From a virus: a stretch of DNA of 20,782 nt. Shown here in pieces: positions 10,450 through 16,679 of the stretch; position 1 is the first letter of the stretch, and every line of letters starts with the position of its first letter. Below the pieces are notes generated by a model. It made no database searches. It saw only the letters and a program-made list of their open reading frames with translations, and was not told where the DNA came from. A program made the translations under genes and the position numbers. The DNA is taken from UHGV virus genome UHGV-0324485; one strand, given 5' to 3'.

Positions 10450-11595
10450 ATGGCACAGGGCTTGCCTGTATCAAACGTTGTTAATGTTGATGTGATCATG
10501 TCGCCGCGTGCAGCATCAGGGCGAAATTTTGGTGCATTACTCATTCTCGGCCCGTCCACAATCATTCCGGTAAGTGAGCGCATTCGTCGTTATTCTGCCG
10601 CGGAAGATATTGGAAAAGATTTTGGCGTGGAATCACCAGAATATAAAGCTGCGCAGGTGTTTTTCTCACAATCACCGAAACCTCAGGAGGTTTTTGTTGG
10701 TCGTTGGGTGAAAACGAAAGGAGACAGCGAACAGGCCACGCCTGAGACGCTGGAGCAGGCTGTGAATGCCATGCTTGATTATACTTCATGGTATGGGCTG
10801 GGGATTGCAGACGATGCAGATATTCCGGATGCAGACTGGCTGAAAGTGGCTGCGGCGATCGAATCCTCTTCTGTAAGCCGTATTCTGGCGATTACGACAA
10901 GCGATGAGAAATGCCTGCAGACTGCATCCAGAGATGATTTGGCATCAAAACTGAAAAACGCCGGATATTCACGCAGTTTTATTCAGTATTCATCGGGTAA
11001 TAAATACGCTGCGTTATCTGCATTTGGCCGGGCATTCACGGTTAATTTCAATGGCAGTAATACCGCGATTACGCTCAAGTTTAAGCAGGAGCCGGGTGTC
11101 GGGTATGAAACACTGACAGTCAGCCAGGCATCGGCACTTGATGCAAAAAACTGCAATGTGTTCGTGTACTACCAGAATGATACGGCTATCCTCCAGCAGG
11201 GAGTGATGGCTAACGGCGATTTCTTTGATGAACGCCACGGCCTGGACTGGTTACAGAATTATGTGCAGACCAACCTCTATAACCTGCTTTATACCAGCAC
11301 CACGAAAGTACCCCAGACTGAAGCCGGTATTACCCGACTGTTATCAAGTGTTGAAAAATCACTGGATCAGGCCGTTCAGAATGGACTGATTGCTCCGGGC
11401 GTATGGAACGGTGGCGACCTGGGTCAGTTGTCATCAGGTGACACGCTGCCCAAAGGTTATTACGTATACGCCCAGCCGCTGGATGAACAGGCACAATCAG
11501 AACGTGAAGCCCGTAAGGCTCCGGTGATTCAGGCTGCAATAAAACTTGCAGGCGCGGTTCATTACGCTGACGTACAGATTAACGTTGTTCGCTAA
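10450..11595 (+). CDS. Tail sheath protein (DUF3383-type)
   Basis: 381 aa, RBS GGAGA 8 nt upstream. Followed by a tube-like gene, chaperone and tape measure, the canonical contractile-tail order; family assignment from memory. Confidence 0.6.
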
Positions 11596-11605
11596 GGGGA
11601 AGTGA

Positions 11606-12046
11606 ATGTCTACCTATTCTTTTATGGATGTCACTGCGACGCTGACCGGGCCGACCGGTTCGATTGACCTCGGGTACGGTTCGGCAAGTTCTGAAGAGGG
11701 GATTGTGGTTGCGATGGGCGGTCCTAAAAACACCATGACCATCGGTGCTGATGGCGAAGTGATGCACAGTCTCCATGCAGATAAAAGCGGGACGATTACC
11801 GTTAACCTTCTGAAGACATCACCGACAAATAAAAAATTGTCGCTGGCGTATAACGCCCAGAGCCAGTCTTCTGCCACATGGGGGAATAACGTTATCGTGA
11901 TCCGCAACAAGGTCAGCGGCGACATCATCACGGCACGCAGTGTTGCGTTCCAGAAACAACCGGATAACGCCAACGCTAAAACCGGTAATACGATGCCGTG
12001 GGTGTTTGACTGCGGCAAGATTGACCAGGTTCTCGGGGAGTTTTAA
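11606..12046 (+). CDS. Tail tube protein (DUF3277-type)
   Basis: 146 aa, RBS AAGGGGA, directly after the sheath gene. Confidence 0.6.
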   Translation: MSTYSFMDVTATLTGPTGSIDLGYGSASSEEGIVVAMGGPKNTMTIGADGEVMHSLHADKSGTITVNLLKTSPTNKKLSLAYNAQSQSSATWGNNVIVIRNKVSGDIITARSVAFQKQPDNANAKTGNTMPWVFDCGKIDQVLGEF

Positions 12047-12049
12047 TAC

Positions 12050-12502
12050 ATGGAATTCGAAATCAAAGGCGTGAAATATCGCGTGGCAAAACTCAGCGTT
12101 TTTGACCAGCTGAAAGTGACCCGCAAACTTCTGCCGGTGCTGGCAGGAATGATGTCAGATTTCGGGAGCATTCGCTCCCGTTTGCCTGCTGACGGCAAAA
12201 TCGACACCGTGAAATTCGAGCAGTTAAAACCGGTGTTTGAAACCATGCTCCCGCGTATCGCTGAGGAACTGTCTTCCCTGACTGAAGAAGATACCAACGC
12301 GATTATTCATCCTTGCCTGGCCGTAGTATCACGTAAGCACATGGACGGATGGACGCCGGTATTCAACAGCGGTCAACTGATGTTCGATGATATCGACCTG
12401 CTAACCATGCTGCAGCTGGTGGCGCGGGTGGTCGCCGATTCACTGGGAAATTTTTTGCCTACACCCCTTACCAGCACGACACAGAGCCTGCAACAGGGCT
12501 GA
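12050..12502 (+). CDS. Tail assembly chaperone (G-like)
   Basis: 150-aa ORF between tube and tape measure; contains a slippery heptamer near its 3' end. Confidence 0.6.
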   Translation: MEFEIKGVKYRVAKLSVFDQLKVTRKLLPVLAGMMSDFGSIRSRLPADGKIDTVKFEQLKPVFETMLPRIAEELSSLTEEDTNAIIHPCLAVVSRKHMDGWTPVFNSGQLMFDDIDLLTMLQLVARVVADSLGNFLPTPLTSTTQSLQQG

Positions 12503-12690
12503 CGTTTAACAGCCTGCCGGACGGGCTGTCCTACCTTCTCAATCCGGTTGACGCCGGGTTAATTCCTTATACAGCACTGAAAGATGGCTCTGTCGATTTG
12601 TACGACATTGCTCTCTTGAATGACCATCTGGCGGTAAAAGCGGATAACCAGCGGCGCATTGAGAAATGGAGAGAGGATAATGAACGCTGA
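12050..12690 (+). CDS. Predicted frameshifted chaperone fusion (G-T-like): chaperone residues 1-135 plus a ~78-aa -1-frame extension
   Basis: Extension translates without stops (FAYTPYQHDTEPATGLTFNSLPDGLSYLLNPVDAGLIPYTALKDGSVDLYDIALLNDHLAVKADNQRRIEKWREDNER) and ends 10 nt into the tape measure gene. Confidence 0.45.
12448..12454 (+). promoter_or_regulatory. Candidate -1 programmed ribosomal frameshift site A_AAT_TTT
   Basis: Heptamer fits X_XXY_YYZ in the chaperone frame (codons GGA AAT TTT). The -1 frame is open from here to TGA at 12688-12690. Confidence 0.5.
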
Positions 12691-14686
12691 AACTATTAAA
12701 GATTTCCTCGTCTCGCTTGGCTTCAGTGTGGATGATGCAGGAGCGAAAAAGTTCGGTTCTGTCCTCGCCGGTACAACTGCAAATGTCATCAAAATGGGGC
12801 TGGCCGTTGAAGGAGCCGCGCTGTCCGTGGTGGCCTTCACGGCTAAGATCGCCTCCGGCCTGGATAATCTTTACTGGGCGTCACAGCGCACCGGCGCGAC
12901 AGTCCAGGGAATTCAGTCTATTGGCTATGCGGTTTCGCAGGTTGGCGGCAGCGTGGACGCTGCGCGATCTTCTCTGGAAAGCCTCTCCCGGTTTATTCGT
13001 AACAATCCCGGTGCAGAAGGCTTTCTGAATCGCCTGGGCGTACAGACCCGTGATGCCAGCGGTAACATGCGTGACATGGCCGCTATTTTTACGGGCGTTG
13101 GACAGAAACTCAGCAGCATGCCGTATTACCGGGCTAACCAGTATGCGCAGATGCTGGGCATTGACGAAAATACCCTGATGGCTATGCGTCGCGGAGTGGG
13201 GCAGTTCAGCGCTCAGTATTCAGAAATGGTGAAAGCGATCGGATTTAATGCCGATCAGGCTGCCTTATCGTCAAACCGGTTTATGACCTCGCTGAAATCG
13301 CTCGGTGAAATGGCCGGGATGGCGCGGGACAAAATCGGATCGAATCTTGCGGACGGACTGGCGGGGCAGATTGATAACCTGCGCAAAAAGATAATTGAAA
13401 ATTTTCCCAAAATTGAAGTCACCATCACAAAGGTCATAAAGGGGATCCTCTGGCTGGGTGAGATAGTCGGGCGGGTAGCATTTCGGATAGTCGATGGTGT
13501 CGGAGATATCATCGAGTGGTGGGGGAAACTGGATGCCGAAACGAAAACCCTGATAGAGGTTATCGGCGGTCTGGTTGTCGCCATGCGGATACTTAACTCT
13601 ACTTTCTGGATGTCACCTATAGGGCTGATTACCGGTCTGATCGTGGCTCTCGGTCTCTTGTGGGAAGACTACAAAACATGGAAAGAAGGCGGTAACAGCC
13701 TTATCGACTGGGAAAAATGGCAACCGGCAATAGATAAAGCGAAGGATGCGATCACCTGGTTCCGCGACAAATTACTCGAGCTGAAAGACAGCGTGGGGGG
13801 ATGGCAAAAATCATTGGAAATCCTCGGTACATTCATCGCGGGTGTCTGGATATCCAAGGTTCTGGGGGCTTTCGGAAAAATATCAGGTTTGCCGATCCCA
13901 CCCTGGCTTAAATTGTGGGCGCTTTACGCGGGTTATATTGTTAGTGACAGAGAAAATATTGCCGATAGCGCAAAATCTTCACTGAGGTATACGAAGCGAA
14001 TTATCGGCGACACGCTGGCTGCTATTGGTATAAAAACAGATATCGGACGCAGGGATGTCAGTGAGGTCCGTGAATGGCCTGCGTGGATGGACTGGTTGCA
14101 CGGGGGACCCGGTAAAGTTATCCGGCAGGGACAGAGTAACGGTGTAGTGCATGGCTCCAACGTCCAGCCCGACATCCCCGGCGGCGGCACTCTTGCTGAT
14201 CGTAACAATAACCCCGGGAACATTCGCCCGGTGAGCGGTAAAGGGTTCCGGTTTTTCGAATCAGCGCTTGAGGGCTGGGAGGCGATGAAAAACCAGCTCA
14301 TGCGTTACTTTACCGGGAAAACAACCGGACGGGCATTACAGACTATTCAGGATATTGTCAGTACCTGGGCCCCGGCAGGTGATAACAACGATCCGAAAAA
14401 GTATGCACAGGATGTTGCGAAATGGATGGGAGTATCACCGAATGCAATATTGAATCTTACAGATCCCCAGACTATGGGAGCATTGATGCAGTCGATGGCG
14501 CGCAAAGAAGGTTATTCAAACTGGAACAGCCCGCTGGCGTATCAGGCCGCCGCTGGCAGCCTTAACCAGCAGACTGTTATAAATGTTCATGGAGTTAACA
14601 ACCCTCAGGAGGCGGCTAATCTGATCGCTGACAAGCAGGGGGCTGTAAATGCCAGGGCGGTACAGCAATTGAAAGGACCTGCGTAA
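12680..14686 (+). CDS. Tail tape measure protein
   Basis: 668 aa with strong RBS GGAGAGAGGA before ATG 12680 (the track's 12659 start is TTG). Several hydrophobic segments mid-protein; position after the chaperone pair. Confidence 0.75.
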   Translation: MNAETIKDFLVSLGFSVDDAGAKKFGSVLAGTTANVIKMGLAVEGAALSVVAFTAKIASGLDNLYWASQRTGATVQGIQSIGYAVSQVGGSVDAARSSLESLSRFIRNNPGAEGFLNRLGVQTRDASGNMRDMAAIFTGVGQKLSSMPYYRANQYAQMLGIDENTLMAMRRGVGQFSAQYSEMVKAIGFNADQAALSSNRFMTSLKSLGEMAGMARDKIGSNLADGLAGQIDNLRKKIIENFPKIEVTITKVIKGILWLGEIVGRVAFRIVDGVGDIIEWWGKLDAETKTLIEVIGGLVVAMRILNSTFWMSPIGLITGLIVALGLLWEDYKTWKEGGNSLIDWEKWQPAIDKAKDAITWFRDKLLELKDSVGGWQKSLEILGTFIAGVWISKVLGAFGKISGLPIPPWLKLWALYAGYIVSDRENIADSAKSSLRYTKRIIGDTLAAIGIKTDIGRRDVSEVREWPAWMDWLHGGPGKVIRQGQSNGVVHGSNVQPDIPGGGTLADRNNNPGNIRPVSGKGFRFFESALEGWEAMKNQLMRYFTGKTTGRALQTIQDIVSTWAPAGDNNDPKKYAQDVAKWMGVSPNAILNLTDPQTMGALMQSMARKEGYSNWNSPLAYQAAAGSLNQQTVINVHGVNNPQEAANLIADKQGAVNARAVQQLKGPA

Positions 14687-15339: not shown

Positions 15340-15642
15340 ATGAAAGCCGTAGAAATCCCACTGGTTGCTGACAATCAGACTTTTGCCACCACAATTAACG
15401 GTTCGGTTTATCACCTGTCTGTCATCTGGCGAGGCGAGTACTGGGTTCTGGATCTTGCTGACAGCAATGGCTCCGCCATTATATCAGGTATACCGATGAT
15501 TACGGGGGCTGACCTGCTGGCACAGTATCGATATATGGATCTGGGTTTTTCTCTGGTGGTGCTCTGCGACGTGGCAGGGCAGGAGAATCCGACGCAATTC
15601 GATCTTGGAACGCTCTCACACCTCTATGTTTTCACGGAGTAA
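15340..15642 (+). CDS. Tail/baseplate protein, hypothetical
   Basis: 100-aa ORF with RBS GGAAGG. Confidence 0.4.
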   Translation: MKAVEIPLVADNQTFATTINGSVYHLSVIWRGEYWVLDLADSNGSAIISGIPMITGADLLAQYRYMDLGFSLVVLCDVAGQENPTQFDLGTLSHLYVFTE

Positions 15643-15644
15643 CA

Positions 15645-16679
15645 ATGTCGAAAAACTGGATGCGTCACTTTGAATTATTGCTTGTTGATGATAAGGGCGA
15701 CGGGATAAAAATTTCTGAGCTTAAAGTCACTTTCAATATTCAGAAAATGCCTGCGACCATATTTAATGGATTCGTTGGAAATTTTAAGGTTTATAACCTG
15801 TCTCCTACCACTCAGAACCGGATTATGCAGAAGGAGTTTTCGCGTATACAGGTTATTGCCGGATACAAGGGGCAACCGGATGCAGCAGGTAATTATCCTG
15901 ATGAAAACGTTGGTATGATATTCAATGGAGATATCCGTTTTACTGTCACTGGTAAAGATAATGCCACAGACAGTTGGATCATGTTGCAGTGTATTGACAG
16001 CTGGGAAGGCCACCTGAACGCAAGTGTGAAAACCACAGTGGCAGCTGGCTGGAAGTACAGAGATCTTTTCAGTCTGGGTATGAAATCATTCGAACCATAT
16101 GGCATCGAATCCGGCGCAGTTTCTGACATGCCTGAAACGGTATTTCCCCGGGGTCGCGTTGTTTATCAAAACACATCAAGGTTGATGAATCATATCGCAG
16201 GGCAGTGTAAGGCTAACTGGTGGTATGAAAATAATCTGGTAAATATTGTTCCTGAAGATAAATATATTGGTGTTGCTACGGTGTTGAATGCTAACACCGG
16301 GCTTATCGGTATGCCACAGCAGACGATGGGAGCTGGCGTAAATGTCAGATGTCTGATTAATCCAAATATTAAGCTCGGTGGGCTTATTCGTCTGGATCAG
16401 GCATCTGTATACCGTGCCTCTTTGAGTAATGACCAGGTAGCGAAATCGCCAGCACGACTGGATGAGTCTGAAAGCGACGGTAATCTCTACGTTAACGGTC
16501 TGCCAGGCATGTCACAGCCTGCCAGCATTAATACTGACGGTGATTACATTGTGGGCAGCATTGATTATACTGGCGACACCCGAGGGCAGGCGTGGTATAT
16601 GGACCTGCTTTGCCTGGCTAAAGGTGGCAAAGAACTATTGGCAAAAGGCACTTTGGACAAAGTCGGAGATGTAGAGTGA
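15645..16679 (+). CDS. Putative baseplate hub / late-control-D-like tail protein
   Basis: 344-aa ORF with RBS GGAG, upstream of the spike gene; family assignment is weak. A sampled 60-nt stretch is about 40% GC. Confidence 0.35.
   Translation: MSKNWMRHFELLLVDDKGDGIKISELKVTFNIQKMPATIFNGFVGNFKVYNLSPTTQNRIMQKEFSRIQVIAGYKGQPDAAGNYPDENVGMIFNGDIRFTVTGKDNATDSWIMLQCIDSWEGHLNASVKTTVAAGWKYRDLFSLGMKSFEPYGIESGAVSDMPETVFPRGRVVYQNTSRLMNHIAGQCKANWWYENNLVNIVPEDKYIGVATVLNANTGLIGMPQQTMGAGVNVRCLINPNIKLGGLIRLDQASVYRASLSNDQVAKSPARLDESESDGNLYVNGLPGMSQPASINTDGDYIVGSIDYTGDTRGQAWYMDLLCLAKGGKELLAKGTLDKVGDVE

Follow-up and report, generated by a model that had tools for sequence, protein, structure and literature searches.

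The window considered here, i.e., the whole analysed stretch of 20,782 nucleotides (nt) from the viral genome UHGV-0324485, contains the contractile-tail morphogenesis module of an Escherichia coli prophage, in which the genes follow one another in the order of sheath, tube, an open reading frame (ORF) of 150 amino acids (aa), tape measure, and then the Dit-like, plug and hub genes. The 150-aa ORF encodes a tail assembly chaperone, and the element in question is a slippery run close to its 3′ end, from which the −1 frame stays open as far as the tape measure gene. A programmed −1 ribosomal frameshift, comparable to those of lambda G/GT and P2 E/E+E′, is predicted at this run, yielding a 213-aa, 24-kDa fusion, and the probability of this reading is put at roughly 0.9. 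The features on which it depends are the following:

12050..12502, + strand: tail assembly chaperone, the short zero-frame product of 150 aa and 16.7 kDa (G-like part).
12445..12457, + strand: compound slippery run GGGAAATTTTTTG, made up of three overlapping in-frame heptamers, G_GGA_AAT, A_AAT_TTT and T_TTT_TTG.
12448..12454, + strand: A_AAT_TTT (register B), the heptamer of the earlier note on this DNA, with tRNA-Asn in the P site and tRNA-Phe in the A site.
12451..12457, + strand: T_TTT_TTG (register C), with tRNA-Phe in the P site and tRNA-Leu in the A site.
12454..12690, + strand: −1 frame extension of 78 codons and TGA, the putative T-like C-terminal domain of the long product (Pfam DUF6889, E-value (E) 8.8e-20).
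12050..12690, + strand: predicted 213-aa, 24.0-kDa frameshift fusion (G-T-like).
12426..12433, + strand: Shine–Dalgarno (SD)-like element GGGTGGTC (GGGUGGUC), which lies within the chaperone ORF and may act as a 5′ stimulator.

The chaperone ORF matches Pfam Phage_TAC_15 (PF21822) over residues 6–138 with E 1.8e-32 and 113 bits against a cutoff of 22, as well as phrog_1688 (E 2.9e-66). The earlier note had placed A_AAT_TTT at 12448–12454 in the chaperone frame, and so it stands: these positions read AAATTTT, and the codon registers agree, the zero-frame codons being GGA (12446–48), AAT (12449–51), TTT (12452–54) and TTG (12455–57). It is an in-frame and conserved candidate for the slip site but not the sole one, since the note missed the flanking heptamers G_GGA_AAT (12445–51; called register A below) and T_TTT_TTG. 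These three, lying inside the overlap of the zero and −1 frames and within the last 18 codons, are the sole in-frame X_XXY_YYZ heptamers of the chaperone ORF. The −1 frame is open from 12391 to the TGA at 12688–12690 and overlaps the tape measure ORF by 11 nt, while the +1 frame is closed; the length of the extension given by the note (about 78 codons up to this TGA, overlapping the start of the tape measure gene) is confirmed by a count of 78 sense codons from 12454.

Such a constellation is rare in this window. Its 23 genes (6147 codons) hold just 19 in-frame X_XXY_YYZ heptamers, 3 of which overlap in a single 13-nt run; the −1 open run has a median of 8 codons and reaches 78 codons or more at 3.2% of positions, so the heptamer cluster together with the 78-codon −1 run exceeds the chance expectation. 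One further in-frame heptamer, G_GGT_TTT at 15543–15549 in the Pam3_gp18-like plug gene (15340–15642), is followed by a −1 frame that runs for 378 codons into the hub gene (15645–16679). A plug–hub fusion by way of this site was considered and dropped: SEN34 has the heptamer but also an intervening stop, Mulock has no heptamer and its hub frame opens just 9 codons upstream, and the arrangement was taken as chance. For the run in the chaperone gene, the corresponding explanation would be that heptamer and long −1 ORF occur by coincidence, that nothing is made from them, and that 12503–12679 is a non-coding spacer. A coincidence would fit with the lack of a 3′ stimulatory structure in the window and of any experimentally known product. 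At the same time, the low chance expectations, the Pfam DUF6889 match given above, and a −1 frame that is open, conserved at the protein level and marked by a third-position pattern in 87 unique sequences from several phyla, together with the conservation of the slip site described below, effectively refute this explanation already, leaving it a next to negligible probability.

The comparison drew on relatives from annotated phages, bacterial genomes, viral contigs and metagenomes, which provided an intact extension at 219 loci, 118 of them unique; 44 representative lineages, less than 80% identical to each other in the extension, reach as far as Alphaproteobacteria and Bryobacterales. In the 87 unique sequences, the entropy at positions 1/2/3 of the −1 codons amounts to 0.68/0.57/1.27. 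The same third-position pattern is found where the extension overlaps the zero-frame tail (15 codons, 0.79/0.74/1.30) and from the zero-frame stop to the start annotated by PGAP (8 codons, 0.53/0.39/1.34). Since the pattern holds overall, in the overlap and ahead of the PGAP start, selection can be said to act on the −1 frame all the way from the slip site; judged by these alignments, the extension is a real polypeptide under purifying selection from that point. The zero-frame tail after F135 is not conserved, and the tblastn matches to all 40 phage homologues end at residue 134–135. Apart from Pfam DUF6889, the extension matches phrog_4364 of "unknown function" (E 1.9e-23).

These data also bear on the possibility that the −1 ORF is an independent small gene with a start of its own, unjoined to the chaperone (a "DUF6889 family protein", formerly "NTP pyrophosphohydrolase"). 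This is how the databases present it: PGAP annotates 12526–12690 as a 54-aa coding sequence (CDS) in E. coli genomes (also at L147 12927–13091), stand-alone entries of 43–78 aa are numerous, Pfam and PHROGs both keep a separate family, and small CDSs are placed there in the phage records GZ7, yong1 and ST11-VIM1phi8.3. Such a gene would nevertheless need a start codon, and the −1 frame of the window (12391–12690) contains no ATG; the PGAP start at 12526 is a CTG. The ORF list of the window includes no ORF of at least 40 aa starting with ATG, GTG or TTG and ending at 12690, so that the longest such ORF, being below 40 aa, would miss most of the conserved domain, and in 67 of the 87 unique relatives there is no ATG, GTG or TTG ahead of the conserved LPDG motif. 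The annotated lengths range from 43 to 78 aa, and the annotated starts are therefore arbitrary. Moreover, the purifying selection on the −1 frame sets in 24 codons before the PGAP start, right at the slip site, and an independent gene would have no need for the frozen synonymous codons of the slip site described below. On balance, an independent gene is very unlikely, and the stand-alone DUF6889 and phrog_4364 annotations seem to be artefacts, produced when gene-calling programs that do not model the frameshift assign the extension a start of its own.

The slip site itself is conserved beyond what its amino acids ask for. Ten phages with chaperones 55–89% identical to that of the window carry the very same 13-mer GGGAAATTTTTTG, in frame. 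The synonymous positions of the slip-site codons hardly vary among 33 diverged sequences (GGA in 30/33, AAT in 31/31, TTT in 33/33 and TTG for Leu136 in 30/30), whereas codon usage for these amino acids is mixed at other conserved columns, e.g., TTC and TTT for Phe at about 60/40 and AAC versus AAT for Asn at 22 versus 7. Among the 44 lineages, the registers are distributed as follows:

Registers A, B and C present: 21/44 lineages.
Registers B and C present: 6/44 lineages.
Register C only: 7/44 lineages.
Register B only: 5/44 lineages.
Registers A and B present: 3/44 lineages.
No full heptamer: 2/44 lineages, where the T_TTT tetramer alone is left.

A T followed by a Phe codon is universal (44/44 lineages; T_TTT in 41 and T_TTC in 3). 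Register B is found in 35/44 lineages, being the sole full heptamer in 5 of them or in 8 if those that have register A upstream are counted too, and register C, as T_TTT_TTN, in 34/44. Enterobacterial lineages devoid of A and B retain C (GGC GGT TTT TTG; GGT GAT TTT TTG), two alphaproteobacterial relatives carry T_TTT_TTT, and in the lineages devoid of C the register-B heptamer is A_AAT_TTT, C_CCT_TTT or C_CCT_TTC. The view that T_TTT_TTG is the single conserved site, with the earlier note one codon off, was entertained and then overturned by the metagenome scan, which turned up lineages with B alone or with A and B. A human-gut metagenome contig nearly identical to the window (L217, OGMN01000055.1) reads GGA AAT TTT TGG (GNFW) with the −1 ORF intact; in it T_TTT_TTG is lost and A_AAT_TTT and G_GGA_AAT remain.

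A DNA variant of the run deserves separate mention. A 94%-identical relative (L146 1896–1909; Logan assembly SRR23924998, protein P0001) reads GGGAAATTTTTTTG with seven T, and its chaperone and extension form a single in-frame ORF of 213 aa which carries both Pfam domains and is exactly the predicted fusion. This T7 version comes either from a mutant, "fusion-only" prophage or from an error made in sequencing or assembling the homopolymer. The cluster of P0001 has 16 member sequences.

A further explanation is that transcriptional slippage is the main source of the fusion: one extra U would be inserted by RNA polymerase at the T6 run (12451–12456), and the resulting mRNA would be in frame. The homopolymer is there, some relatives have T7, and the DNA variant with T7 encodes precisely the fusion. 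According to Sharma et al. (PMC4066793), such slippage may be why U7 and A7 runs are avoided in every frame. Yet the bases of GGA AAT other than T are frozen at synonymous sites as well, and 10/44 lineages keep the frameshift with just T3–T4 (CCTTTTA, AATTTTA, CCTTTCT) and a hairpin at 6–7 nt, a spacing typical of ribosomal frameshifting. Runs of six, such as the T6 here, are also short for efficient slippage by the E. coli RNA polymerase. Phage P2, with the same TTTTTTG, was described as a case of translational frameshifting (PMC3091744). As the main source of the fusion, transcriptional slippage is improbable, if slightly less so than an independent gene; as a minor contributor on the T6 run it is possible.

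According to the mechanism that we favour, a programmed −1 ribosomal frameshift, most ribosomes would translate 12050–12502 and release the 150-aa chaperone, and a minority would slip back by one nucleotide in A_AAT_TTT_TTG (12448–12457) and go on in the −1 frame to the TGA at 12688–12690. The long product of 213 aa would then consist of the shared N-terminal chaperone domain and a T-like domain of 77–78 residues (Pfam DUF6889). The universal slipping element would be tRNA-Phe on the UUU at 12452–54, preceded by a U, and two routes can be envisaged from it. By the first, the shift would take place with the UUU codon in the A site, on A_AAU_UUU, giving the junction ...GNFF/AYTPY; by the second, it would take place one cycle later with the UUU codon in the P site, on U_UUU_UUG as in P2, giving ...GNFL/AYTPY. 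The A-site and P-site routes are about equally likely, and both may be used. The predicted fusions differ at residue 136 alone, which is F or L, and the predicted tryptic junction peptide is VVADSLGNFFAYTPYQHDTEPATGLTFNSLPDGLSYLLNPVDAGLIPYTALK if Phe-UUU occupies the A site (A_AAT_TTT or G_GGA_AAT) and VVADSLGNFLAYTPY...K if the shift occurs at T_TTT_TTG. By analogy with lambda, both forms would coat the tape measure protein through the shared domain, the T-like domain would recruit the tube protein, and neither form would be found in the virion. An AF2 model was built from the chaperone rows alone, the joint alignment of fusions and fragments having been misaligned by MAFFT, and shows the T part at low confidence. 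A profile search of the PDB sequences returned noise only.

Comparison with known systems starts from the position of the gene pair, which lies between the tube and the tape measure genes, as expected for the G/GT type. The neighbours defining this position are as follows:

10450–11595: sheath gene (DUF3383).
11606..12046, + strand: tail tube gene, 146 aa (Pfam KPP10_Orf10 / Phage_Tube_PhiTE, E 8.8e-61), the upstream neighbour defining the chaperone position.
12680..14686, + strand: gene for the 668-aa tape measure protein, whose C-terminal part contains a transglycosylase region (match to phrog_2276, "tail length tape measure protein", with E 1.7e-248).

The tube gene is named "DUF3277 family protein" by PGAP. 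The tape measure gene begins with the ATG at 12680, just before which stands GGAGAGAGGA; it has a weak match to Pfam PhageMin_Tail and the PGAP name "lytic transglycosylase catalytic". The stretch 11600–12720 is 100% identical in E. coli S163-2 (NZ_CP058709), and the queried stretch was found in 334 of 5426 complete E. coli genomes.

Further traits of the G/GT type are likewise present at the locus, namely an overlapping ORF devoid of a start, a slippery sequence inside the overlap, the conservation of both the slip site and the open frame, and an extension under selection. The lambda mechanism has been described in PMC5009743. In lambda, as in the window, a pair of overlapping ORFs separates the major tail gene from the tape measure gene, and the first heptamer of the window, G_GGA_AAT, resembles G_GGA_AAG of lambda. 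The two differ in that lambda is a siphovirus and the tail here is contractile, that no sequence homology exists between them, and that the A-site codon of lambda is AAG, read by tRNA-Lys, whereas the slipping tRNA that is conserved here would be tRNA-Phe on a run of U. Which partners the G and T parts bind has been shown for lambda alone. The frameshift of the lambda G and G-T tail chaperones was reportedly worked out by Levin, Hendrix and Casjens in 1993 and by Xu, Hendrix and Duda in 2004, 2013 and 2014. Lambda is not known to need a 3′ stimulatory structure.

Another comparable system is the myovirus P2 (NC_001895), whose chaperone gene lies between those of the tube (FII) and the tape measure (T) and carries an identical T_TTT_TTG encoding F-L; its −1 ORF also ends inside the tape measure gene, by 8 nt in P2 and 11 nt here. 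The P2 E/E+E′ shift has been reported to occur at TTTTTTG, with no 3′ structure (PMC3091744, citing Christie 2002 and Xu 2004). P2 differs in that E has 91 aa versus 150 aa here and that it has the T_TTT_TTG register alone (GGT TTT TTG). Directly upstream of its TTTTTTG, P2 reads TAAGGTGGTCGG (L148 667–685; NC_001895 19666–19684), i.e., an SD-like AAGGUGGU 2–4 nt from the heptamer; the upstream string GGTGGTCG of P2 is common to the upstream element of the window, which may be meaningful or may go back to the similar K/R-V-V-G/A peptide.

Two phages carry chaperones of the same protein family as the window. Klebsiella phage Mulock (CPT_Mulock_014/015) has a chaperone with 61% identity to that of the window, and Burkholderia phage Magia (gp15/gp16) one with 27% identity; both share the gene order and the −1 extension, and Mulock has an identical GGGAAATTTTTTG, while Magia lacks the T6 run and has C_CCT_TTT in its place, followed after a spacer of 6 nt by a hairpin of 8 bp. 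The records of both carry the database annotation "tape measure chaperone frameshift product". The Mulock paper makes no mention of a frameshift, and an exact look-up of three candidate fusion sequences for the Mulock join retrieved none from the sequence collection. A poly-T signal has been proposed for Pakpunavirus and Andersonviridae as well, where a −1 frameshift between TAC-N and TAC-NC was deduced comparatively at a conserved GTTTTT motif (PMC12846349, 2025). These are also myoviruses with the signal at the 3′ end of the chaperone gene and a downstream ORF mis-annotated as a hypothetical protein; they differ in their hosts, and none of them is among the tblastn hits to the window chaperone, with no direct homology test.

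As to the stimulators of the shift, the distant relatives devoid of the T6 run (L059, L060, L151–L166) have a hairpin that starts 6–7 nt after the motif X_XXU_UUY (or the T_TTT tetramer). In a five-sequence subgroup that aligns in register, 94% of cells pair, against 26–52% in slid controls, and 3 of the 10 pairs show compensatory double changes. In Magia (L231 1001–1046), C_CCT_TTT is followed by ATCAGC and then by an 8-bp stem. This is a canonical −1 cassette, and the register there is fixed with Phe in the A site, as in the register of the earlier note. To go by these alignments, the same chaperone family uses two architectures of frameshift signal.

In the window, a stimulator may lie upstream of the run. 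The element GGGTGGTC is the strongest complement of the anti-SD sequence in 12050–12700, with −12.7 kcal/mol versus −8.3 kcal/mol for the ribosome-binding site of the tape measure gene, and its anti-SD pairing beats 95% of synonymous recodings in 24/33 lineages. Arg137 is encoded by the rare codon CGG in 22/32 sequences, compared with about 6% CGG elsewhere in these genes, and Val138 by GTG in 31/33. The element is present in 20/27 lineages with the compound site versus 2/10 of those bearing the hairpin. It lies 11, 14 and 17 nt upstream of the three heptamers; the published spacing for SD stimulation of a −1 shift is 9–14 nt (PMC5009743). E. coli dnaX and IS elements (PMC5009743) are alike in having an SD-like sequence upstream of the heptamer, GGGUGGUC at 11–17 nt here compared with the published 9–14 nt, and dnaX differs in its heptamer, A_AAA_AAG, and in the presence of a hairpin on the 3′ side as well; what suggests a stimulatory role here is anti-SD complementarity together with synonymous-site conservation. 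With this qualification, GGGUGGUC may stimulate the frameshift.

The element belongs to the block GTGGCGCGGGTGGTCGCCGA (12417–12437), which is nucleotide-identical in many lineages where other synonymous sites are saturated, and which can also form a small hairpin. This upstream hairpin, GGCG-CGGGTGGT-CGCC (12421–12436), beats synonymous recodings in 12/33 lineages, mostly such as share the same nucleotides, and its register shifts between lineages; the anti-SD reading of the block is the more consistent of the two.

Several points weigh against the proposed frameshift and have to be set beside the evidence in its favour. The earlier note had suggested looking for a stem-loop or pseudoknot 5–9 nt after the heptamer, and none was found in the window by folding, by alignment consensus or in Rfam, which gave no match. 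Single-sequence folding returned z scores of −0.70 (12458–12560) and +0.20 (12400–12540), with the nearest predicted stem at least 20 nt downstream; RNAalifold on 35 diverged sequences found no 3′ structure (consensus −0.41 kcal/mol); and per-sequence folds of the 50 nt after the run had a mean z of −0.14, none being below −2. As the window has no 3′ stimulatory structure, the efficiency of the frameshift may be low. Each of the two routes has a weakness of its own. Heptamers of the type H_HH.U_UU.Y, including A_AAU_UUU, are among the most efficient in E. coli, and U_UUU_UUG is outside that efficient class (Sharma et al., PMC4066793); a shift on A_AAU_UUU, in turn, requires the re-pairing of tRNA-Asn on AAA. 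The SD-like signal is confounded both with the conserved peptide ARVV and with phylogeny, and its pairing uses the inner GAUCACC part of the 16S tail, so the effective spacing may be longer than 9–14 nt.

The parallel with P2 has its limits too. Homology to E/E+E′ was considered on account of the shared TTTTTTG, the F-L junction and the peptide (A/G)(K/R)VV(G/A), and was rejected with a BLASTP E of 16 and an hhalign probability of 0.6% (E 0.094, 16 columns); the window chaperone would operate in the manner of P2 E/E+E′, yet no membership in the P2 gpE family can be detected. Finally, the fusion is predicted from sequence and comparison, the shift codon may be either of two, and the functions of the G-like and T-like parts are assigned by analogy only. 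In spite of these points, the proposal of the earlier note, a tail-chaperone frameshift upstream of the tape measure gene, is supported by the gene order, the Phage_TAC_15 and DUF6889 matches, the selection on the −1 frame and the frozen slip codons.

Some copies of the gene pair are damaged. The genomic copy in Apirhabdus (L018) has a frameshift early in the chaperone ORF, and two more (L041, L108) have a disrupted −1 extension, all of which is consistent with defective prophages or assembly errors. The protein P0072 (212 aa, Logan) has an N-terminal DUF977-like (PF06163) segment joined to chaperone residues ~29 to 150 and probably comes from a rearranged prophage or a misassembly.

Taken as such, the feature is an ordinary one, well known among tailed phages, and the window holds an unannotated instance that borders on the already known; the knowledge of how tailed phages build their tails is not changed by it. 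Its main value is in annotation: RefSeq/PGAP calls the region a separate 54-aa CDS, and DUF6889 and phrog_4364 ("unknown function") would be accounted for as the T-like domain at the C terminus of long-form Phage_TAC_15 chaperones. For the biology of recoding, this is a well-sampled family in which the slipping tRNA is invariant (tRNA-Phe on U_UUY) and the rest of the signal changes between lineages. It is tempting, though doubtful, to go further and suppose that the signal was rebuilt within this one family, the distant lineages having X_XXU_UUY with a 6–7-nt spacer and a hairpin, and the enterobacterial lineage of the window having dropped the hairpin in favour of the tandem, overlapping A_AAU_UUU_UUG, on which tRNA-Phe could slip twice in succession, with the SD-like GGGUGGUC. 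If true, this would make the family a natural series for how 3′ structures, 5′ SD elements and tandem heptamers substitute for each other as stimulators at a constant short-to-long ratio.

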